From an uncultured Actinomycetes bacterium (GTDB lineage: Bacteria > Actinomycetota > Actinomycetes > S36-B12 > UBA5976): a stretch of 45,408 nt of DNA. Location of the stretch: NCBI GenBank assembly GCA_903907835.1, contig CAIVPQ010000199.1, positions 1 to 45,408 on the forward strand, written 5' to 3'. The position numbers and the translations under genes are program-made. Position 1 is the stretch's first letter. Each line of letters opens with the position of its first letter. The notes below the pieces were generated by a model that was not told the DNA's origin, did no database searches, and saw only the letters and a program-made list of their open reading frames with translations. Below are positions 1,980 through 15,635 of the stretch, one piece after another.

Positions 1980-3557
1980 TCATTCAACGCCGATGAGATA
2001 GGGCCACAGAGATTGTCCACCAACCACTTGAATAACATCTGCGCCCGGAAATTGTTTTCTAGCCTGATTCAAAAGCTTTTCGTCAAAATCTTCACTTGCA
2101 ACGATTGTGATTATGTCGGCACCATCGCCACCGAGTTTCGCCATGACAGCAAGTGCCATCTGCTCAGGTGAGAGTTCAGCAGAGACCGCCACCACCTGAC
2201 CAGCGACAAGGCCTAGAACATCCCCACGCACACAAGTTCCTACCGGAGTTGGAACACTGCGTTGTGCAATTGTCACCGCACCAAATTGCACATCTTTTAC
2301 AACCCGAGTCATATGCTTAACCGCAGTTTCAAGATCATCATTTTCATCAAGCACCGCTAGCGCCGCAAGTGACTGGATAATTGAAGCCGTTGGAACAACT
2401 TGTGCGCTGATGCCAAGTTTTAGAAGATCTCGCACCGCTTTGTTGGCACTACCAAAGCAATCAGAATCGCTTGGCAAAATAACGACATTCTGAGCATTAG
2501 CCTTTTGGGCTGCTGCCCGAATTTCCCAAGTTGCTGGTTCTCCGCGCGGCATGGCTTGGACCGCCATAGCGCCAGCTTGCTCAATAATCTTTACCATCTG
2601 CGAACCATGGCAAATTACAACGGCTCTAGTTGTTTGCCCTGCATCCTGTCCTTGATGATTAGTCTCGCTCGCAACCAGTGGAGTGACCACAATGCGATAA
2701 GGCGAACCCAGTCGCATAGCCGCATCAACTGCTTGAGCAGGTTCATCAATGTGAACATGGATGTTGTACGGTGCGATACTTCCCGAAACCGTGACTGAAT
2801 CACCAAATTGATTCAGAATATTCTTTAGCTCTGCGAGTGCCTCGCTGGTTCCATCAAACAAAAACATAACTTCGTTGGCTGGGCCATCGTAAGAAAAAGA
2901 ATCTAAATCGCATGTCCTGGTTGCTACATCCAACTCGGGCATAGTCACACCACTGACCTGCTCGTAGAGAGAATCATGGAAAAGGCTAAGCACTAAGGCG
3001 CCAGCATCAACTACGCCCGCTGCCTGGAGTTCTGGTAACTGCTCAGTAGTTAATTGCACTGCATTGCGCGCAGCCCTTGCCAGAGCTTTGGCGTAAGCCG
3101 GAAAATCATTTTCCACCTCAACCTCAGCCAAGACATCAGCCACAGTGAGAATAGTTCCGTCTCGAGGACTTGATACTGAAGCCCTGGCAACCTGTGCCGC
3201 ATTGCTGATTGCACGCTGCCAACCAGATGTATCCACATTCGTTGATAGGTCATCGGCAATTCCACGCAAATACTCAGAGAGAATTACGCCAGAGTTTCCA
3301 CGGGCTTGATCTCCACAAACATCAGCCACGAGTTGAGCCAATTCCTGAACGCTTCGGGTCGTGCTGTCTAAATCTAAACACCCTTGCACTGTTAGTAACG
3401 AGTTAGTTCCAGTGTCTCCATCTGGAACCGGGAAAACATTGAGGTCGTTGATTAGGGCTTCATTAGTTCGCAGGTGTCCAATGAAACGGCGCAGTGTGGA
3501 TAAATAAATCTCTGCGTCAATTGTTAGCAAGGCCTTTGAGCGCGATTTGCTAAACAT
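1980..3557 (-). CDS. DAK2-domain fusion protein, YloV family
   Basis: 525-aa ORF with an N-terminal DhaL/DAK2-type motif ([12 protein letters not shown]). It holds the conserved position between rpmB and recG. Confidence 0.8.
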
Positions 3558-3711
3558 CTGTCAAGGTTACCGCGTCGATTGCAGCAATATAGGTAAGCCT
3601 CTTTGTCCCTTAAGAACGCCTAAGAATCCCCCGAATTGGAGTTTCTGGCCAATCGGCGATAGTCTGGCAACGCTAAAGAAGCAATTTACCTCAATCTTTC
3701 AAGGAGTCATC

Positions 3712-3900
3712 GTGGCTGCTGTATGTGACGTCTGTGGCAAAGGCCCAGGCTTTGGCCACTCTATTTCGCACTCGCATCGTCGTACGAAGCGTCGCTTCAA
3801 CCCGAACATCCAGTCGGTGCGTGCAGTTGTGAAGAACACACCAAAGCGTCTTAATGTTTGCACTTCATGCATCAAGGCTGGAAAAGTTTCCCGCGTCTGA
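3712..3900 (+). CDS. rpmB: 50S ribosomal protein L28
   Basis: GTG at 3712 is preceded by AAGGAG (3701-3706). [36 protein letters not shown]... is the L28 signature. The upstream part of the 117-aa track ORF (3547-3711) is unlikely to be coding. Confidence 0.9.
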
Positions 3901-3917
3901 AGTTAAACAGAGTTTTT

Positions 3918-3951
3918 AGTAAAGCCCCGACCAATTGGTTGGGGCTTTACT
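3918..3951. terminator. Long hairpin between convergent rpmB and thiL
   Basis: AGTAAAGCCCC (3918-3928) pairs with GGGGCTTTACT (3941-3951), and the intervening ACCAATTGGT is itself palindromic. Only a weak U-tract follows on the + strand. Confidence 0.6.
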
Positions 3952-3984
3952 AATTCAATTTGAAGTAGCTTTGTGAGATTTCTT

Positions 3985-4944
3985 TTAACTCTTGAAATGA
4001 TCCCAACCACTGCTGGCATGAGGCAAGCCATCCACCAGAACTGCTGGTGACCCTGCGGAAACGCTTCCAACAATCACCCATCCTGCCGGTACATCTAAAG
4101 CATTCGAGAAAGTTGCAGCGAATGCATGATCTTCGCCACCAGTGAGAATCCATTCCAAAGCATCGCCATTGAAGGCTCCTGCTGCTGAACTTAATGGCTC
4201 AGGGATCTCAAGCAAACTCGAATCAATGTTGACTACAACATTTGAGGCACTAGCTACATGAGTTAGGTCTGATACCAAACCATCACTGATGTCAATCATC
4301 GAAGTGGCTTTAAGTCCAGCATGCGCTAGTTCATATGGAGGCGTTGGCACTCGATGAGCACCAACCAAAACCCTTGGCGAACGAAAGCCTCGTGAAAGCA
4401 TTAATAGGCCAGCAGCCGAAAATCCCAACTGACCCGCCACAGCCAGAACATCGCCAGGTTTTGCACCAGAACGCAGAATAGGTTTTGCATTTCCAAGTTC
4501 ACCGAGCGCGCTGACGCTTATTGAGATTGAGTCGGCTCGCACAATGTCGCCACCTACTACGGTCACTCCAACACTTGATGCTTCTTCACGCAGTCCATCA
4601 GCGAACTCTAGAACCCAAGCAACAGTCGTCTGTCCAGGTACTGCTAATCCAACTAAGAGCGCAGTTGGTGATGCGCCCATGGCAAAGATGTCGGCTAAGT
4701 TTGCTGCTGCCGCTTTACGACCTATGTCATTGGCCGAAGACCAATCAAGGCGAAAGTGCACACCTTGGGTCAACATGTCTAGGCAAGCAACGACTTGACC
4801 GCCTTGGGCTGAAACGACGGCTGAATCATCGCCTATTCCAACCGCAACTTGAGCAATTGCTGGATCGCGCAGTCTTTGTGCAATCAAGGCGATTAATTCA
4901 AACTCACCAATTTCAGCGACAGTCTGTCGCAAGTTCATCGCCAT
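3985..4944 (-). CDS. thiL: Thiamine-monophosphate kinase
   Basis: 319-aa ORF with the AIR-synthase-like motifs GIGDDSAVV and VVGGDIV. It starts 20 nt downstream of ddl on the same strand. Confidence 0.85.
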   Translation of the reverse strand: MAMNLRQTVAEIGEFELIALIAQRLRDPAIAQVAVGIGDDSAVVSAQGGQVVACLDMLTQGVHFRLDWSSANDIGRKAAAANLADIFAMGASPTALLVGLAVPGQTTVAWVLEFADGLREEASSVGVTVVGGDIVRADSISISVSALGELGNAKPILRSGAKPGDVLAVAGQLGFSAAGLLMLSRGFRSPRVLVGAHRVPTPPYELAHAGLKATSMIDISDGLVSDLTHVASASNVVVNIDSSLLEIPEPLSSAAGAFNGDALEWILTGGEDHAFAATFSNALDVPAGWVIVGSVSAGSPAVLVDGLPHASSGWDHFKS

Positions 4945-4964
4945 TAACTAAATCTCAACATTCA

Positions 4965-6059
4965 CTAACGAAGTCCTACGCCTCGACGAAGAGCATCTTG
5001 AATAAGCGTGTCTATTAGTTCTGGATATTCCAATCCGCTTTGAGCCCACATGCGCGGGAACATGGAGATTGGGGTAAACCCAGGCATGGTGTTTATTTCA
5101 TTTACCAAAACTTTTTCGCCAGAAATAAAGACATCAATGCGCGCAAGGCCTTCTCCCCCGATTGCATCAAAGGCTTGAATTGCAACTTGCTGAACTTTCT
5201 CGCTTAAGTGAGCGGGTAAGTCTGCGGGAACAACTAGATCAACTGAGTCATCAAGGTATTTTGCTTCAAAATCATAAAACTCGTGCCCTTCTCGAACAAT
5301 GATTTCAGCACACACGCTCGCTTTAGTTCCGGTGGCACTGCTCAATACTGCACATTCAACTTCTCTAGCGTTTTCGATACTGGCTTCAACAATGACCTTG
5401 GGATCGTGTGCGCGCGCAAGTTCAATGGCCGTTACTAATTCGCCGTAAGTTTTCACTTTGGAAATTCCGACACTCGAACCTGCGCGAGCGGGCTTAACGA
5501 AAAGCGGCAAACCTAGATTCGCGATTTGAGCAAGGACCTCATCGCGAGAATTTTGCCACTGTGAATCTGTAATTACAGCGAATTCGCCAACTGGAATCAT
5601 TGCGGCAACCATCAGGGCCTTTAAGTGTGCCTTGTCCATCGCAGCAGCGGATGCAAAAACCCCTGAGCCAACATATGGAATAGCTGCCAACTCTAAGAGG
5701 CCTTGGATTGTGCCATCTTCACCCCACGGTCCGTGGAGAACTGGAAAGACAACATCGACTTGACTTAAAAGTTGGGGCACTTCAGCCTGGACGACAAGAT
5801 GTGTCGCACTTGGATCGGGGGTAAATAAAATCGCTTGATTGGTTGAATCCACCTGCGGGAAGACACCTTCAACTGCAACAAGTCGCTGCGGAGCATCTTG
5901 CTCTAAAACCCATTTACCTTCGCGAGTAATTCCGATTGGAATCACTTCATACTTATCCCGATCAATCGCTCGAAGCACGCTACCGGCAGAAATGCATGAA
6001 ATTTCATGCTCGCTACTGCGACCACCAAAGATTACGGCAACCCGTATACGTTCTGACAT
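4965..6059 (-). CDS. ddl: D-alanine--D-alanine ligase
   Basis: 364 aa. N-terminus VAVIFGGRSSEHEISCISA, an ATP-grasp core, and the C-terminal NEINTMPGFT motif. Confidence 0.9.
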   Translation of the reverse strand: MSERIRVAVIFGGRSSEHEISCISAGSVLRAIDRDKYEVIPIGITREGKWVLEQDAPQRLVAVEGVFPQVDSTNQAILFTPDPSATHLVVQAEVPQLLSQVDVVFPVLHGPWGEDGTIQGLLELAAIPYVGSGVFASAAAMDKAHLKALMVAAMIPVGEFAVITDSQWQNSRDEVLAQIANLGLPLFVKPARAGSSVGISKVKTYGELVTAIELARAHDPKVIVEASIENAREVECAVLSSATGTKASVCAEIIVREGHEFYDFEAKYLDDSVDLVVPADLPAHLSEKVQQVAIQAFDAIGGEGLARIDVFISGEKVLVNEINTMPGFTPISMFPRMWAQSGLEYPELIDTLIQDALRRGVGLR

Positions 6060-6112
6060 AGAGATAACGCTAGTCCACTGACTGCACTTTGTTGTGGCAG
6101 TACTGTGTTCTT

Positions 6113-7258
6113 ATGTCTAATAACGTGAATCCGCCAGCCAATGAAACCTTGAATCTGGATACTGTTGCTGTTCAGGCAGGTCGCCCATCACCTAGTCCAG
6201 ATGGACCCGTGAACCCGCCGATCTTTGCATCCACAACTTTGCACGCAGGCGGTCCTGCTGGGTATCAGCGCGAATGGAATGAAACGACAAGTTACCTCGA
6301 AGACCTTTTAGGTGCATTAGACAGTGGCATCGCAACTGTCTACTCAAGTGGGATGGCTGCGGCCAATGCAATTATCGATTTAGTGCCGGTTGGTGGAGTC
6401 ATCGTGGCAAGTTCGCATTCGTACACCGGGGTTGCAATGCGACTCAAAGAATTGCAAGAAGCAGGTCGCCTTATCGTGCGCCTTGTTGATGTCACTAACG
6501 CAACCGAGATTGAAACTGCGATTCGCGGTGAAGGTACTCCCGCACATTGGGTCTGGCTCGAATCCCCTACTAATCCGTTGATGGAAATTTGCGACATTCG
6601 TGCAGCTGCGCATGTGGCGAGAGATGTTGGTGCATATCTGGTCATCGATAGCACCTTCATGACACCTGCCCGACAAAGGCCACTTGAACTTGGGGCGCAT
6701 GTTGTGATGCACAGTGTTACAAAGGGTTTGGCCGGACATTCAGATGCGCTACTTGGATCCCTAGTCACTAATGAACCAGAATTAGCGAGAATTTTCATTG
6801 AACGTCGGATTCTTATGGGAGCTGCGCCAAGCCCATTCGATGCATTTTTGGCGATACGAGGAATAAGAACCTTGGCTGTGCGAGTAGATCGCGCGGAAGA
6901 GAACGCCAAAATAATCGCTAATAGGTTGCTGGAACACCCGAGCGTTACCGCAGTTCACTATCCAGGTTTATCTAGTCACCCCAATGCACACATTCACGAT
7001 ACGCAAACCGATGGCCCGGGGACTGTGATGTCTTTCGAAGTAACAGGTGGCGCTCAAGGTGCAGAAAATGTTTGTGGGGCTGTAGCTTTGATGACTTACG
7101 CTACATCCTTAGGTGGTGTTGAGACATTAATTGAGCGTCGCCGTCGATGGCCAAATGAAAACAAAGATGTTCCCGAATCCTTGATTCGCCTTGCAGTGGG
7201 GATTGAAAATGTTGAGGATCTTTGGCGAGACTTGGCTCAAGCTTTAGAGACTGCCTGA
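6113..7258 (+). CDS. PLP-dependent Cys/Met-metabolism enzyme (cystathionine gamma-synthase/lyase family)
   Basis: PLP-lysine motif SVTKGLAGHSD and family-typical length. ATG 6113 (MSNNVNPP...) is preferred over the TTG at 6089 used by the track. Confidence 0.75.
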   Translation: MSNNVNPPANETLNLDTVAVQAGRPSPSPDGPVNPPIFASTTLHAGGPAGYQREWNETTSYLEDLLGALDSGIATVYSSGMAAANAIIDLVPVGGVIVASSHSYTGVAMRLKELQEAGRLIVRLVDVTNATEIETAIRGEGTPAHWVWLESPTNPLMEICDIRAAAHVARDVGAYLVIDSTFMTPARQRPLELGAHVVMHSVTKGLAGHSDALLGSLVTNEPELARIFIERRILMGAAPSPFDAFLAIRGIRTLAVRVDRAEENAKIIANRLLEHPSVTAVHYPGLSSHPNAHIHDTQTDGPGTVMSFEVTGGAQGAENVCGAVALMTYATSLGGVETLIERRRRWPNENKDVPESLIRLAVGIENVEDLWRDLAQALETA

Positions 7259-7269
7259 GGATTTAGTAT

Positions 7270-7980
7270 TTAACGCGCGACAACAGCCTCTAAGGAGAAT
7301 GAATCTTCTAAACCAAGTTTGTAACCAACACCACGGACTGCTACTCCAACACTTGGACCACCAGCGCTTTTTACCTTGGCGCGCAATCTTGACAAATGTG
7401 ATTCAACAGTGTGGCCATCTCCCTGCCATGAACCCCAAACATTTTCGATTAACTCATGCTTTGGGACTACTCGTCGCGGACTTTCCATCAGAGCGGCCAA
7501 CAGATCGAATTCAATTCGGGTCAAACTAACTTCGGTGCCTTCAAAGACTGCCGTTCGAGCTTCGGTATCCATAGATAGGGGTCCAACCGTCATTAGTGTT
7601 TGTGTTAGCGGGTTTCCGATACTGCGCCTAAGCATTGATTGGACCCTTGCGACAAGCACCTTTGGATAGAACGGTTTCAACATATATTCATCAGCGCCTG
7701 CTGCGAATCCCAAGAGTTGCTCCATTTCGGCAGAATGCGAAGTGAGGAAAAGAACTAGAACGTTACCGAATGATTTAAGCCTGCGACAAAGTTCGAGCCC
7801 ATCCATGTCGCCAGTTTTAAATGAAGTGATTACTAAATCTGGATGATGGGCGTGATAAGCCTGGAGTGCTTCAAATCCGCTACTGGCTTGCACTACACAG
7901 TAACCACTAGAGCGCAAACTCTCACAAATGAGAGCGCGAAGCTGGGCATCTTCATTAACAACAAGTGTGACAGCGACCAT
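7270..7980 (-). CDS. OmpR/PhoB-family response regulator with atypical (pseudo-)receiver domain
   Basis: The N-terminal receiver fold keeps the conserved T (LFLTSHS) and K (MLKPF), and the C-terminal winged helix is present (LTRIEFDLLAAL ... VRGVGYKLG). The phospho-acceptor position reads PDLVITSFKTGDMDG, Ser53 instead of Asp (codon 7822-7824). The acidic pair reads NE instead of DD. No histidine kinase gene is present in the window. Confidence 0.85.
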   Translation of the reverse strand: MVAVTLVVNEDAQLRALICESLRSSGYCVVQASSGFEALQAYHAHHPDLVITSFKTGDMDGLELCRRLKSFGNVLVLFLTSHSAEMEQLLGFAAGADEYMLKPFYPKVLVARVQSMLRRSIGNPLTQTLMTVGPLSMDTEARTAVFEGTEVSLTRIEFDLLAALMESPRRVVPKHELIENVWGSWQGDGHTVESHLSRLRAKVKSAGGPSVGVAVRGVGYKLGLEDSFSLEAVVAR

Positions 7981-8270
7981 AATTTTGAGGCTAACAAAAT
8001 CTTTTTCAACTTTTATCCAGATTTAGCAAAGTTAAAAACACAACGAGATATTCGAAAAGAACAAAGCGTTAATCGGCATAGTAAATTTCACGATCCATGT
8101 ATCAAGAACTAACCCCTCATCTAGATTTTCAACTACCTAGCCAACATGCCTGAACTCTAAATAAAAAAATGTAAACCTGATGCAAGGTTCTTGTGCAGTA
8201 AACGCAACCTCAAAGACGTTGAATGAATTTCAAGTCGCGATTCGCGCGACAGAAAATAGGAGCAATAACA

Positions 8271-8921
8271 ATGAATCAAGATTCAAAACGTGGTGGCGGC
8301 ATTCGCTTAGCCCTAATCGGTGCAATCGGTGCTTCTCTGATGACTGTTGCTGGCGTTGGAGCATTTGCAGGTCTTAATGCGACTGCATCAGCCAGTAATT
8401 CAGTAGATGCAGGGACGCTAAAACTAACTTCGACGAATAAGGGTGCTGGTTTTAGTCAGGCAGTATCCAATTTGGCTCCTGGCGATACCGTTAACCGTTA
8501 TGTCACGCTAACCAATGGTGGAACTCTTAGTGCGAAGAGTTTCTCATTGAGAATCACTTCAACAGGCACCGCGACATTGATCACCAACGGAACAGCTCCA
8601 GCCACAAACAAAGCCATTACGGTCACTGTGAACTCCTGCACTGGAACATGGACTGCAGCCACCGGCGTCTGCAGCGGAACGACCAACACTGAGATTGCGG
8701 CAGCACCATTATCAACGTTTGGTACTGCTCAATCATTTGCAAACACCACAACCTTGGCTTCATTAGCTGATCTGCCACTACAGATTCAGATCAAACTTCC
8801 AGATCAGGATGAAACGACTGTTGATGGCGTTGTTCCTGCTGTAACAGTTCAAGGTGGTTCGGTAGATCTCGACTACCTTTTCTTTGAAGCGCAACGCACT
8901 GTTGCGACAACAAATAGTTAA
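8271..8921 (+). CDS. TasA/camelysin-like secreted protein (candidate major fibre subunit), SipW-type signal peptide
   Basis: ATG 8271 has an AGGAG RBS at 8258-8262. The signal peptide is MNQDSKRGGGIRLALIGAIGASLMTVAGVGAFA, followed by DAGTLKLTS. SNLAPGDTVNRYVTLTNGGTL and the C-terminal LDYLFFEAQR match TasA landmarks recalled from memory. A SipW-type peptidase gene lies downstream. Confidence 0.7.
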   Translation: MNQDSKRGGGIRLALIGAIGASLMTVAGVGAFAGLNATASASNSVDAGTLKLTSTNKGAGFSQAVSNLAPGDTVNRYVTLTNGGTLSAKSFSLRITSTGTATLITNGTAPATNKAITVTVNSCTGTWTAATGVCSGTTNTEIAAAPLSTFGTAQSFANTTTLASLADLPLQIQIKLPDQDETTVDGVVPAVTVQGGSVDLDYLFFEAQRTVATTNS

Positions 8922-8941
8922 TAAACAAAGTTAATACCTCC

Positions 8942-8984
8942 TGTTGTGGGGTGCGCTCATCAGTTGATGGCGCACCCCACAACA
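8942..8984 (+). promoter_or_regulatory. Perfect 15-bp intercistronic stem-loop between the two TasA-like genes
   Basis: TGTTGTGGGGTGCGC (8942-8956) pairs perfectly with GCGCACCCCACAACA (8970-8984) around a 13-nt loop. No U-tract follows. An AAGGAG (8992-8997) lies just downstream. Confidence 0.6.
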
Positions 8985-9020
8985 CGGATTCAAGGAGTGG
9001 CAAAAATATGGGAGATGAAA

Positions 9021-9593
9021 ATGACAAGAATAGGCTTGCGAGTCACTCTGTTATTCCTAGTCGGTTCATTCTTTCTAGCAGCCGCTCTTGTAGTAGACGG
9101 CTATGTTTATGCGAATGCAAAGGCCAGCGCAAAAGGATCAACATCGGTCTCAGTCTTAAAGTGGGGAGCGGTGCTTGCTTCCCCATCGGCAACCCCAGCT
9201 AAAACTCCTTTTGTAATTTCTTGGGCCACTTCCCAAAATCAACAAATCGCTTACCTCGAAGTTGTTAACACGGGGTCACAGTTGATTAGTGGCCAAAGCT
9301 ATTCGATTGACACCAAAGATTCTGAAGGTTCGAGAAAAAATGACCCATCAATAACTTTTACTGCATGCACATCCGGCGTTTGGAACAAAGATACCGATAA
9401 GTGCTCTGGATCAACCAGTGTCATCGGAACAAGGTCCAATGGGACTCTCACTTCAAATTTTAGTTTGGCGCCCTTAGCGCGCCTATCACTCCGGCTTCGG
9501 TTAACGAAAGAAAACAGGGTTGCCTGGACAACCACAATCAACATGAAGATCAATCGCTCACAAATACGAACAGCTACAACAACTAACTCATAA
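9021..9593 (+). CDS. Second, divergent TasA-like secreted protein (candidate minor or accessory subunit)
   Basis: Signal peptide MTRIGLRVTLLFLVGSFFLAAALVVDGYVYANA. It shares VVNTGSQL, a C-x11-C-S-G loop and the C-terminal TTNS with the upstream gene. The start is uncertain (9015 or 9021); the track start at 8946 falls inside the hairpin. Confidence 0.6.
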   Translation: MTRIGLRVTLLFLVGSFFLAAALVVDGYVYANAKASAKGSTSVSVLKWGAVLASPSATPAKTPFVISWATSQNQQIAYLEVVNTGSQLISGQSYSIDTKDSEGSRKNDPSITFTACTSGVWNKDTDKCSGSTSVIGTRSNGTLTSNFSLAPLARLSLRLRLTKENRVAWTTTINMKINRSQIRTATTTNS

Positions 9594-9616
9594 ACCTCAG
9601 GAAGGCTTCCCCCGCC

Positions 9617-10204
9617 ATGACAATTTCGCCCATCACTACTGAGCCATCAACTCACAAACGCACAAGAGCAAAAGATTTCTGGCATGGCTTTAACACCACT
9701 TTGCTCTGGATTGTGGCTATTGGATCGGTAGTTGCAGCAGTGCTAGTTGTAAAGAATCAAATTCACTTCACTCGAGTCTTGTCGGACAGTATGGCACCGG
9801 CATTTCACCGTGGAGATGTCCTGCTTGTTAAACCTTATGCAAAGACTGAGCTTCGCCAGGGGCAGATTGTCGTGTTACCTAATGTTGATAAGGACGGCAG
9901 TCAATATGTCCATCGACTTATTAATGTCGACATCGCAGGCAAACAGGTAAGCGTGGAAACAAAAGGGGATGCGAATCAAGTTAAGGATCCTTGGACCCTA
10001 AACATCAAGTCGAACGAAGTCCCATTGGTTCTTGGACAACTGCCCACCTCCAAGTTGCCATTTGTCGAGTTGAGCCGAAATCAAATCATGCTGTTTATGG
10101 GGCTAATGCTTGTGCTCTTCATTTCGCTTTTTGTTCCAAGCAGCGCATTTCCGCGGTTCTCTCGGCCCGGACATGGCAGACACAAACCAAAGTCAAGAAT
10201 CTAA
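9617..10204 (+). CDS. Signal peptidase I, ER/archaeal (SipW-like) type
   Basis: N-terminal TM segment, Ser box SDSMAP, His in place of the P-type Lys (YVHRLI), TKGDAN box, and a C-terminal TM segment plus a basic tail. It starts 23 nt downstream of the second TasA-like gene. Confidence 0.8.
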   Translation: MTISPITTEPSTHKRTRAKDFWHGFNTTLLWIVAIGSVVAAVLVVKNQIHFTRVLSDSMAPAFHRGDVLLVKPYAKTELRQGQIVVLPNVDKDGSQYVHRLINVDIAGKQVSVETKGDANQVKDPWTLNIKSNEVPLVLGQLPTSKLPFVELSRNQIMLFMGLMLVLFISLFVPSSAFPRFSRPGHGRHKPKSRI

Positions 10205-10258
10205 AGTACGAAGGACCTTAGTTTTTTCAGAGTTAGCTTTGGCTCACTCGACAATCTT

Positions 10259-11263
10259 TTAGTCTTGACCCTCTTCAGCGCGAGTCGAACGTGCCATGAA
10301 AGATTGCAATACCTTAGCCGGACTTTTACCCTCGTGGATTACCTTGGTTACTTGCTCAGTAATCGGCATTTCAACACCGTGGCGATTTGCTAAATCAAGA
10401 ATGGAGCGACAACTCTTGACACCTTCTGAAGTTGTTCTGATTTGGGCTTGGGCTTCAGCAACACTCTTTCCTTCACCGAGGGCAACACCAAAAGTACGGT
10501 TACGGGAAAGTGGTGATTTGCAGGTCGCTACTAAGTCGCCCACTCCAGCAAGTCCTGCGAACGTTAATGGGTTGGCTCCGAGTGCTACGCCCAGTCGGGT
10601 CATTTCGGCTAGACCTCTCGTAATTAGGGCGGCTTGAGAGTTTTCGCCGTACCCAAGACCAACAGCCATGCCGTTGGCTAAGGCAATCACATTTTTTACA
10701 GCACCAGCTAGTTCGACGCCTAGGACATCGGTTGTGTAGTACGGGCGAAAATAATCCGTTGTGCACGCCTCTTGAATACGCAGGGCAGCAGGTTCATCGC
10801 TACAGGCAACCGTTGTTGCAGCCGGCTCTCGCAAGGCAATTTCGTGAGCCAAGTTCGGTCCGGATACAACCGCCACTCGATCGATATGTACTCCAGCTAC
10901 TCCAGCAATTACTTCACTCATGCGTTCGGCGGTTCCGAGTTCGACTCCCTTGATAAGCGAAACTAAAGTTGCAGATTCTGGAATTGAAATTGTCCAGGCG
11001 GCCAAAGTGCTACGCAATGTTTGAGCTGGGATCGCTAACACCACTAAGTCGGCATCGCCAAGCGCGGAAACCGGATTGGTGGTTGCAACTACCGATTGAG
11101 GCAAAACCAGTCCAGGATGATATTCAGAGTTTGTGTGTTGGGTATTTATCTCATCGGCTACCGCACGAGTGCGAGTCCATAACGACACATCGCAACCAGC
11201 ATCCGCCAAAACCATGGAGAACACTGTTCCCCATGAACCAGCACCCATAACTGCTACGCGCAT
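10259..11263 (-). CDS. gpsA: NAD(P)H-dependent glycerol-3-phosphate dehydrogenase
   Basis: Rossmann N-terminus MRVAVMGAGSWGT and family-typical length. Its start overlaps the plsC stop (TAATG). Confidence 0.9.
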   Translation of the reverse strand: MRVAVMGAGSWGTVFSMVLADAGCDVSLWTRTRAVADEINTQHTNSEYHPGLVLPQSVVATTNPVSALGDADLVVLAIPAQTLRSTLAAWTISIPESATLVSLIKGVELGTAERMSEVIAGVAGVHIDRVAVVSGPNLAHEIALREPAATTVACSDEPAALRIQEACTTDYFRPYYTTDVLGVELAGAVKNVIALANGMAVGLGYGENSQAALITRGLAEMTRLGVALGANPLTFAGLAGVGDLVATCKSPLSRNRTFGVALGEGKSVAEAQAQIRTTSEGVKSCRSILDLANRHGVEMPITEQVTKVIHEGKSPAKVLQSFMARSTRAEEGQD

Positions 11264-12033
11264 TAGCTTTCGGATCCTTTGTCTTTTGTGGATTTTTTCT
11301 CAATAGGATTTTTTGCCAGTGCAATTCTGCGATCAAGTGGCTGAGTTGGGATTGGTTCTTGGCGCTGTTCAGCCAAGATTTCGGTAATTGCTCGCATAAT
11401 TCGCTCAGTTGCTTCGCGCAGGACAGTAGCGGTGATTGGCTGATTACGCAGATCCTCAAGGTCAACAGGCGGGCCAGCCCAGATTTTCATAGTTTTGCGT
11501 GGAAAAAACTTTGGGAATTTCGAATGCAGACCAAGGATATCTTGGGGACCCCATTGCGCAGCCGGGATTACTGGACATCCAGTTGTAAGAGCTATTCGGG
11601 CCACCCCAGTTTTGGCAGTCATGGGCCAAAGCTGTTGGTCACGCGTAAGTGTTCCCTCAGGGTAAATAACTACACATTCGCCACCTTCAACAGCCTTGAT
11701 GGCCGCATGTAGCGAGGAAGTAGCATCGGCAGTGCCACGACTGACTGGAATCTGACCAGCACCTTTTAGGATGGCGCCAAAAACAGGGACTTTAAAAATT
11801 TCTGCTTTAGCCAGAAAGCGAACTGGACGACCATTGTCGTTACAAAAATGCGCCGCTGCTAATGGGTCAAACCAAGACAAGTGATTCATCGCCAAGACGA
11901 CTCCACCTGGAATCTGTAGGTTTTCGCCGCCGCGCCAATCACGCTTGGTTAAGGCCTGCAACGGGGGACGCAATACTCCCTCGAGTACTCGATACCAACC
12001 ACCCCTGGGTGATTGCGCTGCTACCTTGCTCAT
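11263..12033 (-). CDS. plsC: 1-acyl-sn-glycerol-3-phosphate acyltransferase
   Basis: HX4D motif NHLSWFDP and YPEGTLTR box. It forms an operon with gpsA. Confidence 0.85.
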   Translation of the reverse strand: MSKVAAQSPRGGWYRVLEGVLRPPLQALTKRDWRGGENLQIPGGVVLAMNHLSWFDPLAAAHFCNDNGRPVRFLAKAEIFKVPVFGAILKGAGQIPVSRGTADATSSLHAAIKAVEGGECVVIYPEGTLTRDQQLWPMTAKTGVARIALTTGCPVIPAAQWGPQDILGLHSKFPKFFPRKTMKIWAGPPVDLEDLRNQPITATVLREATERIMRAITEILAEQRQEPIPTQPLDRRIALAKNPIEKKSTKDKGSES

Positions 12034-12049
12034 TTTTTGGTTCCTGACA

Positions 12050-12096
12050 TAAAAAGATGATCGGGCTCAAAGGTTACCCTGTTGAGCCCGATCATC
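12050..12096 (-). terminator. Intrinsic terminator of hup
   Basis: A 15-bp stem, GATGATCGGGCTCAA (12056-12070) with TTGAGCCCGATCATC (12082-12096), is followed on the minus strand by TTTTT. Confidence 0.75.
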
Positions 12097-12106
12097 GAGA
12101 ACGAGA

Positions 12107-12388
12107 TTACTTGCCTGAAACGATCTTCTTGAATTCTGCGCCTGCGCGGAACTTAGGAACTGATGTTGCAGCAATCTGAACTGCAGCACCTGTCTGTGGG
12201 TTGCGGCCAGTGCGGGCTGAACGCTCGGACTTCTCGAAGATTCCGAAGCCACTTAGTGAAACCTTGTCACCAGCTGCAACAGCCTTCTTTACCGTGTCTA
12301 GAACTGCTTCTACTGCTGTAGTTGCATCTTTCTTGCTTAGACCTTCAACAGATCCAGCAACTGCATCAATTAATTCTGCCTTGTTCAT
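12107..12388 (-). CDS. hup: Nucleoid-associated protein HU (short form, 93 aa)
   Basis: MNKAELIDAVA..., with the DNA-binding arm RTGRNPQTGAAVQIAA. ATG 12388 has a GGAGGA RBS (12394-12399). The track start at 12412 is an upstream extension. Confidence 0.9.
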   Translation of the reverse strand: MNKAELIDAVAGSVEGLSKKDATTAVEAVLDTVKKAVAAGDKVSLSGFGIFEKSERSARTGRNPQTGAAVQIAATSVPKFRAGAEFKKIVSGK

Positions 12389-15457: not shown

Positions 15458-15530
15458 TAGCCCCGACGGGATTCGAACCCGCGCTACCGCCTTGAGAGGG
15501 CGGCGTGCTAGGCCACTACACAACGGGGCC
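15458..15530 (-). tRNA. tRNA-Glu (anticodon CUC)
   Basis: The reverse complement GGCCCCGTTGTGTAGTGGCCTAGCACGCCGCCCTCTCAAGGCGGTAGCGCGGGTTCGAATCCCGTCGGGGCTA folds by hand into a cloverleaf. The anticodon stem is CCGCC/GGCGG with loop CUCUCAA, and the T-loop is TTCGAAT. No CCA is encoded. Confidence 0.9.
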
Positions 15531-15563: not shown

Positions 15564-15635
15564 CTGGGGTACCTGGACTCGAACCAAGACTAACTGAACC
15601 AGAATCAGTTGGGCTGCCAATTACCCCATACCCCA
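15564..15635 (-). tRNA. tRNA-Gln (anticodon CUG)
   Basis: The reverse complement TGGGGTATGGGGTAATTGGCAGCCCAACTGATTCTGGTTCAGTTAGTCTTGGTTCGAGTCCAGGTACCCCAG has a U1-A72 pair and a G73 discriminator. The anticodon stem is ACUGA/UCAGU with loop UUCUGGU. Confidence 0.9.

Follow-up and report, generated by a model that had tools for sequence, protein, structure and literature searches.

Whether an uncultured actinobacterium carries the genes for an extracellular protein fibre of the TasA type is the question raised by a small locus on contig CAIVPQ010000199.1 (assembly GCA_903907835.1), of which positions 1 to 45,408 of the forward strand were analysed; this whole stretch of DNA is referred to as the window. 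In this locus, three co-directional genes encoding two secreted proteins (P1 and P2) and a signal peptidase are separated by gaps of 99 nt (P1 to P2) and 23 nt (P2 to peptidase), and a gene for an OmpR-type response regulator lies divergently next to P1. An earlier note on this DNA, written from the letters and a list of open reading frames (ORFs), had proposed a TasA-like, TasA-like and SipW-type operon at this place, and its ORF coordinates and both gap lengths are exact in the ORF list. With a probability of roughly 0.7, the locus encodes a TasA-type extracellular fibre as a self-contained module that can move horizontally.

The family membership of P1 was determined by profile searches. 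The Pfam model PF12389 (Peptidase_M73) matched P1 at residues 19-96 with 36 bits (E 8.4e-9), above its gathering cut-off of 22.5 bits, and the same model is precomputed on nearly all P1 relatives among the 120 matches listed. A profile built from 66 P1 relatives matched B. subtilis TasA in PDB (E 8e-7), followed by a weak match to AbpX (E 0.12). The blocks aligned between the P1 profile and TasA were SGTLxL...SNLxPGD...NxGxL on the N-terminal side and QGxSxxLxFxFEAxQ on the C-terminal side, and HMMER placed the TasA segments SGTLDLSA...SNLKPGDKLTKDFQFENNGSL and QGNSIKLQFSFEATQ on P1 residues 45-96 and 169-214, so that all three landmarks of TasA claimed for P1 in the earlier note were reproduced. 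The TasA sequence used in the hhalign comparisons was verified only in part, by the HMMER and profile alignments; with this sequence, P1 matched the TasA pre-protein at 94%, with GVGAFA/GLNATA of P1 on GGTWA/AFNDIK of TasA, which puts TWA/AF of TasA on AFA33/G34L of P1. SipW-dependent cleavage of P1 is accordingly placed, as a prediction, at AFA33/G34.

The AlphaFold2 model of P1 (predicted local distance difference test score, pLDDT, 75; predicted template modelling score, pTM, 0.71) was compared with PDB by Foldseek. The top match was the TasA fibre 8aur_A (E 3.9e-5, probability 1.0, template modelling (TM) scores 0.51/0.48), which was also the only match at E <= 1e-3, and monomeric TasA (5of2 and 5of1) came next. 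The profile comparison and the structural comparison, both named in the earlier note as checks, were significant. Judged by these searches, P1 is a member of the TasA/camelysin family; it is not a TasA orthologue, its score with the TasA equivalog being far below the cut-off. Mature P1 contains 19% Thr and no His, and its Cys123/Cys134 pair is invariant in the family. Conservation is highest in AGLNATA, directly behind the predicted cleavage site, in NLAPGDxVNRY and LPDQxETT, and at the C-terminus.

The peptidase scored 67.3 bits with the archaeal-type NCBIfam model TIGR02228 (cut-off 51.85), 35 bits with the bacterial LepB-type model TIGR02227, under its cut-off of 47, and 42.9 bits with the Bacillus SipW equivalog NF046067 (cut-off 190). 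On these scores it is of the SipW type and not a SipW orthologue. Among solved structures, human SEC11C and SEC11A are closest to it (E 3.7e-9), and SDS58M, VH99RL and KGD118AN, taken from the motifs SDSMAP (Ser58), YVHRL (His99) and TKGDAN (Asp118), fall on SGSM, VHRV and KGDNN of SEC11A/C in the alignment. The endoplasmic reticulum/archaeal SipW type that had been read from the motifs is borne out by the TIGR02228 score above cut-off and by the Ser-His-Asp residues aligned with SEC11, and the same score and alignment exclude a Ser-Lys LepB enzyme. The hydropathy profile contains two hydrophobic segments (~27-45 and ~156-175) followed by a basic tail, a segment count that agrees with the two-transmembrane form described for prokaryotic signal peptidase I.

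P2 diverges fast, and a single-sequence search with it retrieved only 4 proteins; the family alignment was instead built from the P2-position ORFs of related loci. P2 and its 34 relatives had no Pfam or NCBIfam match. When the two families were compared by hhalign, P1 and P2 matched at 98% (E 1.4e-13) over 132 columns, sharing a (V)NTG(T/S) strand, a C-x4-W-x6-C-SG motif and the C-terminal R-x-A-T-T-T-N-S, and the mature N-terminus of P2, NAKASAKGSTSVSVLKW, was paired with the presumed donor strand of P1, NATASASNSVDAGTLKL, with ~8 of 17 residues identical by hand count. The P2 family comprises ~361 clusters (50% identity) among 1.84e9 representatives, almost all of 170-200 aa. The AlphaFold2 model of P2 is a confident beta-sandwich (pLDDT 78), and the protein has no His and one conserved Cys pair. 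The profile match indicates that P2 is a divergent TasA-fold paralogue of P1 and not a TapA homologue, and its relation to TasA is transitive, since the link runs through the P1-P2 profile match only. The label TasA-like that P2 had been given holds by way of the P1 family profile, and does not hold as a direct TasA, Pfam or specific-fold match. P2 as a cystatin was rejected, the match scoring 16.6 bits (E 0.0095), below the cut-off of 22.2, and being seen in only 1 of the 34 family members; the match to multicystatin in PDB had E 0.02. Among the relatives, a protein of 2054 aa (P0262) contains 19 repeats matching P2 profile positions 42-92, so that a P2-like N-terminal module is reused there as a repeat, and a JGI record labels another P2 relative (P0125) 'archaellum component FlaG'.

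The C-terminal tail common to both proteins reads QRTVATTNS in P1 and RTATTTNS in P2 of the window. All of the P1 relatives compared (74/74) stop exactly 8 residues past an invariant Gln-Arg, with the consensus [YW]TFxExQRxATTT[N/G]S-COOH, and within a lineage the tail variants of P1 and P2 change together; Arthrobacter, for example, has ...TTGS or ...TTSG at the end of both proteins. In the monomer AlphaFold2 model of P1 the tail is of low confidence. In TasA, a C-terminus that has no order in the monomer becomes ordered in the fibre (PMC9674648), and on this ground the simplest reading is that the tail of P1 and P2 would lie at the subunit interface, where it may even have a covalent role.

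Between P1 and P2, a strong hairpin was found, with a minimum free energy of -41.2 kcal/mol (z = -5.6), and none of 200 shuffled sequences was equally stable. Equally strong hairpins of unrelated sequence occupy the corresponding place in 15 further loci of different lineages (for example L001, L006, L015, L035, L041 and L045). The hairpin is presumed to be a partial terminator or a 3'-end stabiliser that raises P1 above P2 and the peptidase. TasA, too, is far more abundant than TapA and SipW (PMC10151520), and a hairpin after P1 fits such an excess of P1 over P2 and the peptidase.

To reveal the distribution of the cassette, one genome per species was scanned and 76 cassette loci were obtained. 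All but one of them (75/76) bear the label of Actinomycetota or of a lineage within it, the exception (L005) being a metagenome-assembled genome (MAG) titled Acidobacteria. The hosts include MAGs labelled Nanopelagicaceae or 'Actinomycetota bacterium', Arthrobacter, Pseudarthrobacter, Frankiaceae and Tessaracoccus, and the Pseudonocardiales Prauserella, Lentzea, Actinosynnema, Amycolatopsis and Umezawaea; the closest relatives are freshwater MAGs, one of them labelled Nanopelagicaceae. Among the 52 informative loci, which have at least 2.5 kb on either side of P1, a SipW-like gene lies on the same strand at most 2.5 kb from P1 in 48, P2 was detected by tblastn in 38, an underestimate given the divergence of P2, and an OmpR-type regulator is nearby in 24. 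Three gene orders occur, namely regulator/P1/P2/peptidase, P1/P2/peptidase/regulator and peptidase/P1/P2. The co-occurrence of the genes in relatives, a further check raised in the earlier note, therefore recurs phylum-wide. In some freshwater-MAG loci (L060 2206-3607, L062 7261-8798 and L064 2304-3851), two to three tandem P1-like paralogues follow the peptidase and replace P1 and P2. In Prauserella cavernicola (L010), a 1076-aa protein with a chaplin (ChpA-C) domain is encoded ~1.5 kb upstream of the cassette (3290-6517, plus strand).

Several results weigh against a fibre. The identity between P1 and TasA is 14-17% in the structural alignment, with a TM score of ~0.5, the PF12389 match is confined to the segment of P1 given above, and the NCBIfam TasA equivalog NF046066 gave 24.4 bits with P1 against a cut-off of 450. 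The fold search with P2 returned generic beta-sandwiches only, none of them reaching E 1e-3, the P2 family matched the partly verified TasA sequence at 1.7% in hhalign, PDB sequence searches with P2 gave no link to TasA or TapA, and TapA was absent from the Pfam/NCBIfam and fold matches of P2. The hairpin was not called a terminator by the consensus scan and has no U-tract. A housekeeping peptidase may cleave P2 instead of the operon's own, because its signal peptide is of the ordinary A-x-A type (VYA/NA), and it is from homology that P1 would be expected to polymerise into fibres. Lineages of the Nanopelagicaceae type are planktonic, and a classic biofilm matrix seems unlikely if the host is planktonic.

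Part of this evidence would also suit another explanation, in which the secreted P1 and P2 do not polymerise and act at the surface or as a coat (as adhesins or as an envelope layer), have only the jelly-roll fold in common with TasA, and need the dedicated peptidase for their export. The fold match of P1 to TasA is moderate, P2 resembles many generic beta-sandwiches, and a planktonic host would have no obvious use for a biofilm matrix. In addition, the TasA monomer itself is soluble and stable (PMC9674648). We nevertheless regard this explanation as unlikely, since AGLNATA and the fixed-length C-terminal tail are highly conserved and match the TasA termini that rearrange into the fibre interface, and filament operons typically have a major and a minor subunit gene with a hairpin between them.

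The proposed fibre module is placed in the genome as an island (Table 1). Metagenome contigs with a gpsA 61-79% identical to that of the window were compared, and none of them has the cassette at that site. Eight of these loci (L079, L081-L084, L087, L088 and L108) have the order plsC-gpsA-metB-ddl, with a gpsA-metB gap of only 27-120 nt, and in two others (L085 and L089) ddl immediately adjoins gpsA; near the 76 cassette loci elsewhere, neither ddl nor gpsA was found (0/76). The metB-like gene is ancestral at the site and lies outside the island. The insertion between ddl and gpsA described in the earlier note is real, but its size of ~4.2 kb is not: because a metB-like gene stands between gpsA and ddl in the closest cassette-free relatives, the island consists of the regulator and the three genes and measures ~3.0 kb. 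Only 11 nt and 54 nt separate its outermost genes from their neighbours, and neither repeats nor mobility genes were seen at these very tight boundaries. Identical copies of the whole arrangement are present on contigs from three metagenome samples, and ERZ27313280 and ERZ18637907 are samples in which the contig is present. In the relatives L090-L106, the slot of the metB-like gene is filled by a more distant paralogue (~36% identity) that points the other way.

Table 1. Features of the locus and its flanks, by position in the window (residue numbers refer to the P1 pre-protein)
Feature	Position	Strand	Remarks
ddl	4965-6059	minus	
metB-like gene	6089-7258	plus	Cys/Met-metabolism pyridoxal phosphate enzyme
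Inserted four-gene island	7259-10258		bounded by the metB-like stop (7258) and the gpsA stop (10259)
OmpR/PhoB-family response regulator gene	7270-7980	minus	degenerate receiver; divergent from P1
Divergent intergenic region	7981-8270		290 nt; ~40% GC against ~48% in the surroundings
P1	8271-8921	plus	216-aa pre-protein; presumed major fibre subunit
P1 signal peptide	residues 1-33		predicted cleavage AFA33/G34
P1 presumed donor strand	residues 34-47		GLNATASASNSVDA
P1 C-terminal tail codons	8895-8918	plus	
Intercistronic stem-loop	8939-8988	plus	perfect 18-bp GC-rich stem, no U-tract
P2	9021-9593	plus	190-aa secreted protein; presumed minor subunit, fibre initiator or cap
P2 C-terminal tail codons	9567-9590	plus	
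SipW-like signal peptidase I gene	9617-10204	plus	195 aa; Ser58, His99, Asp118
gpsA	10259-11263	minus	beyond it: plsC, HU, leuD

All four ORFs of the island are intact. Putative ribosome-binding sites were found for the three co-directional genes (AGGAG ~8 nt before ATG 8271, GGGAG before ATG 9021 and AGGAAGG before 9617), and the start codons of P1 and P2 agree with the N-termini of their homologues. Far from the locus, two tRNA genes (15458-15530 and 15564-15635, minus strand) were the sole Rfam matches in the window.

The regulator has a receiver domain (PF00072 Response_reg, 1.8e-19) and a DNA-binding domain (PF00486 Trans_reg_C, 3.8e-19). When it was aligned with PhoB, MtrA and 35 cassette-linked regulators, the phospho-acceptor Asp was found to be replaced by Ser (VITSFKT, compared with LLDWML and VVLDLNI). 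NE takes the place of the acidic pair DD, and the Thr and Lys are retained. Beside the regulator of the window there is no histidine kinase, its neighbours being the metB-like gene and P1, and the orphan, atypical (pseudo-receiver) regulator of the earlier note was in this way recovered. In related freshwater-MAG loci, the Asp position holds Gly (L001) or His (L009, L016, L025, L035 and L073), and the regulators of L002 and L003 retain Asp; the other receiver and DNA-binding features are all retained in the freshwater-MAG regulators. The Pseudonocardiales regulators are canonical (VVVLDLNIPG). In L010, a cytoplasmic GAF-HisKA-HATPase kinase identified by Pfam (10904-12232, minus strand) is convergent to the regulator, and blastp clustering suggests an equivalent kinase in roughly 18-26 other loci of Pseudonocardiales; this clustering of flanking ORFs was swamped by spurious antisense ORFs in the high-GC genomes and was used only for the kinase. 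The comparison indicates that the regulator is an old part of the module, because it is adjacent in 24 of the 52 informative loci and canonical with a kinase in Pseudonocardiales, and that kinase control has been lost in this lineage. Four loci (L023, L027, L028 and L040) have a second, receiver-only gene too.

The region between the regulator gene and P1 is presumed to hold the promoters of both the regulator gene and the P1 operon. A consensus scan for promoters and terminators performed no better than on shuffled sequences, and the repeat search of this region found short two-copy words only, with no convincing OmpR-type direct repeats. The word TTTTCAACT occurs twice (8003 and 8126), as does ATCYAGATTT (8015 and 8119), and a small palindrome, GTCGCG-ATT-CGCGAC (8235-8250), stands immediately before the P1 ribosome-binding site. 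These words and the palindrome may be operator elements.

The state of the regulator bears on a second alternative, that the island is silent or in decay, its operon being no longer expressed after the regulator lost its phospho-acceptor and kinase. The degenerate regulator in the window and the lack of the island at the same site in the nearest relatives would fit it, but the four ORFs are intact with plausible ribosome-binding sites and identical copies come from three metagenome samples. The substitutions at the Asp site vary (Ser, Gly and His) while the other features of the regulator are retained, which suggests a working, phosphorylation-independent regulator, and a silent island is thus considered highly improbable. 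Weakest of all, and scarcely credible, is that P1 is a camelysin-type surface metalloprotease with P2 as its partner or inhibitor, a view to which the Pfam name of PF12389, the sub-threshold Cystatin and multicystatin matches of P2 and the protease activity historically ascribed to CalY1 (PMC4475387) would lead, but P1 and P2 are without any His, and so without HEXXH or another usual zinc site, on which ground P1 as a protease was rejected and, given also one conserved Cys pair each, both are unlikely to be enzymes, the cystatin match is limited to one family member, and TasA and CalY are now regarded as structural fibre proteins (PMC9674648, PMC4475387).

For the TasA-type fibre module, the following mechanism is proposed. 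P1 and P2 would be exported by Sec as pre-proteins, and the membrane-bound Ser-His peptidase of the operon would remove the signal peptide of P1 at AFA33/G34 and probably that of P2 at VYA/NA. Cleavage would free the N-terminal strand of P1 (GLNATAS...), which would be inserted into the beta-sandwich of the next P1 by donor-strand exchange, giving an unbranched fibre. P2, which would be made in smaller amounts owing to the strong hairpin after P1, would start the fibre by donating the first strand, or cap it, the part that TapA has in B. subtilis. The divergent OmpR-type regulator would control the operon from the 290-nt region, probably independently of phosphorylation because the phospho-acceptor and the kinase have been lost in this lineage.

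New here are a subunit family (P2), a hairpin that recurs after P1, a C-terminal tail of fixed length, a regulator in decay and an island that varies between strains; the locus extends a known system and is not a new principle. A more far-reaching interpretation, which we hold to be doubtful in its full form, is that the strain-variable 3-kb island is a complete TasA-type fibre machine with a previously unannotated P2 subunit family, that the tail ...QRxATTT[N/G]S-COOH is a new inter-subunit lock, possibly a covalent one, and that the fibre serves not as a classic biofilm matrix but, for example, to aggregate cells, to attach them to particles or to shield them from phages or grazers. For the biofilms of Gram-positive bacteria, TasA fibres serve as the model of a protein scaffold, and their assembly by donor strands connects the surface filaments of bacteria with those of archaea. 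The compact four-gene version could be a minimal system for heterologous reconstitution, and could reveal whether surface fibres are formed by uncultured actinobacteria of fresh water.

Although the cassette is common across the phylum, literature searches found no functional study of an actinobacterial TasA or SipW, or of the TIGR04088/04089 signal-peptide families. In TIGRFAMs, 'alternate signal-mediated exported proteins' are described for Actinobacteria; P1 and P2 had no match at E <= 1 to the NCBIfam models of that name. The system had been called uncharacterised and actinobacterial in the earlier note, which is correct as to function, while the presence of the family is already published and named by NCBI: PF12389 homologues in Actinobacteriota were reported by Wang et al. 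2022 (PMC9245690), and a 2026 preprint (bioRxiv 10.64898/2026.01.04.697558) clusters Actinomycetota sequences with Bacillota TasA. Proteins of Actinomycetota named 'TasA family protein' or 'CalY family protein' (e.g., P0104 of Prauserella cavernicola) are 47-58% identical to P1 and sit in the same P1-P2-peptidase cassette, being known from annotation alone. In the Pseudonocardiales relatives the regulator retains Asp, and in L010 it is accompanied by the kinase, whereas the window has neither.

Like the archaeal AbpA bundling pili, AbpX and Tafi, P1 belongs to the TasA superfamily, and donor-strand complementation is known in archaeal filaments. Archaeal filaments are frequently linked to a TIGR02228-type peptidase, to minor or tip components and to a transcription factor (PMC9245690; bioRxiv 10.64898/2026.01.04.697558). 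P1 is closer to bacterial TasA than it is to AbpA or AbpX, and the peptidase here has two hydrophobic segments whereas a ten-transmembrane form occurs in AbpX loci.

The module resembles tapA-sipW-tasA of B. subtilis in having a presumed major subunit of jelly-roll fold, whose signal peptide is predicted to be of the SipW type, an endoplasmic reticulum/archaeal-type Ser-His signal peptidase of its own in the operon, and an accessory secreted protein, P2, which like TapA would be less abundant and has a donor-strand-like N-terminus. The donor strand of TasA comprises residues 28-38 and assembly proceeds by N-terminal donor-strand exchange, and TapA has an N-terminus that is similar to the donor strand and by which assembly is nucleated (PMC9674648, PMC10151520). 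Unlike in B. subtilis, the accessory protein P2 is a TasA-fold paralogue and not TapA, the gene order is P1-P2-peptidase, an OmpR-type response regulator is present in place of SinR/SinI, P1 and P2 each bear a conserved Cys pair and end in a short invariant tail where TasA has a long charged C-terminus, and the host is an actinobacterium. A similar gene content is found in the B. cereus group, where sipW-tasA(calY2) and calY1 likewise comprise one SipW and two TasA-family paralogues, with no tapA and a regulator nearby (PMC4475387). CalY1 and CalY2, both recognisably TasA-like with ~35% identity to TasA of B. subtilis in each case, are apparently partly redundant (PMC4475387), whereas P1 and P2 are far diverged from each other, and because P2 has diverged so much that no Pfam model matches it, the comparison suggests that the two actinobacterial paralogues have distinct roles as major and minor subunits.

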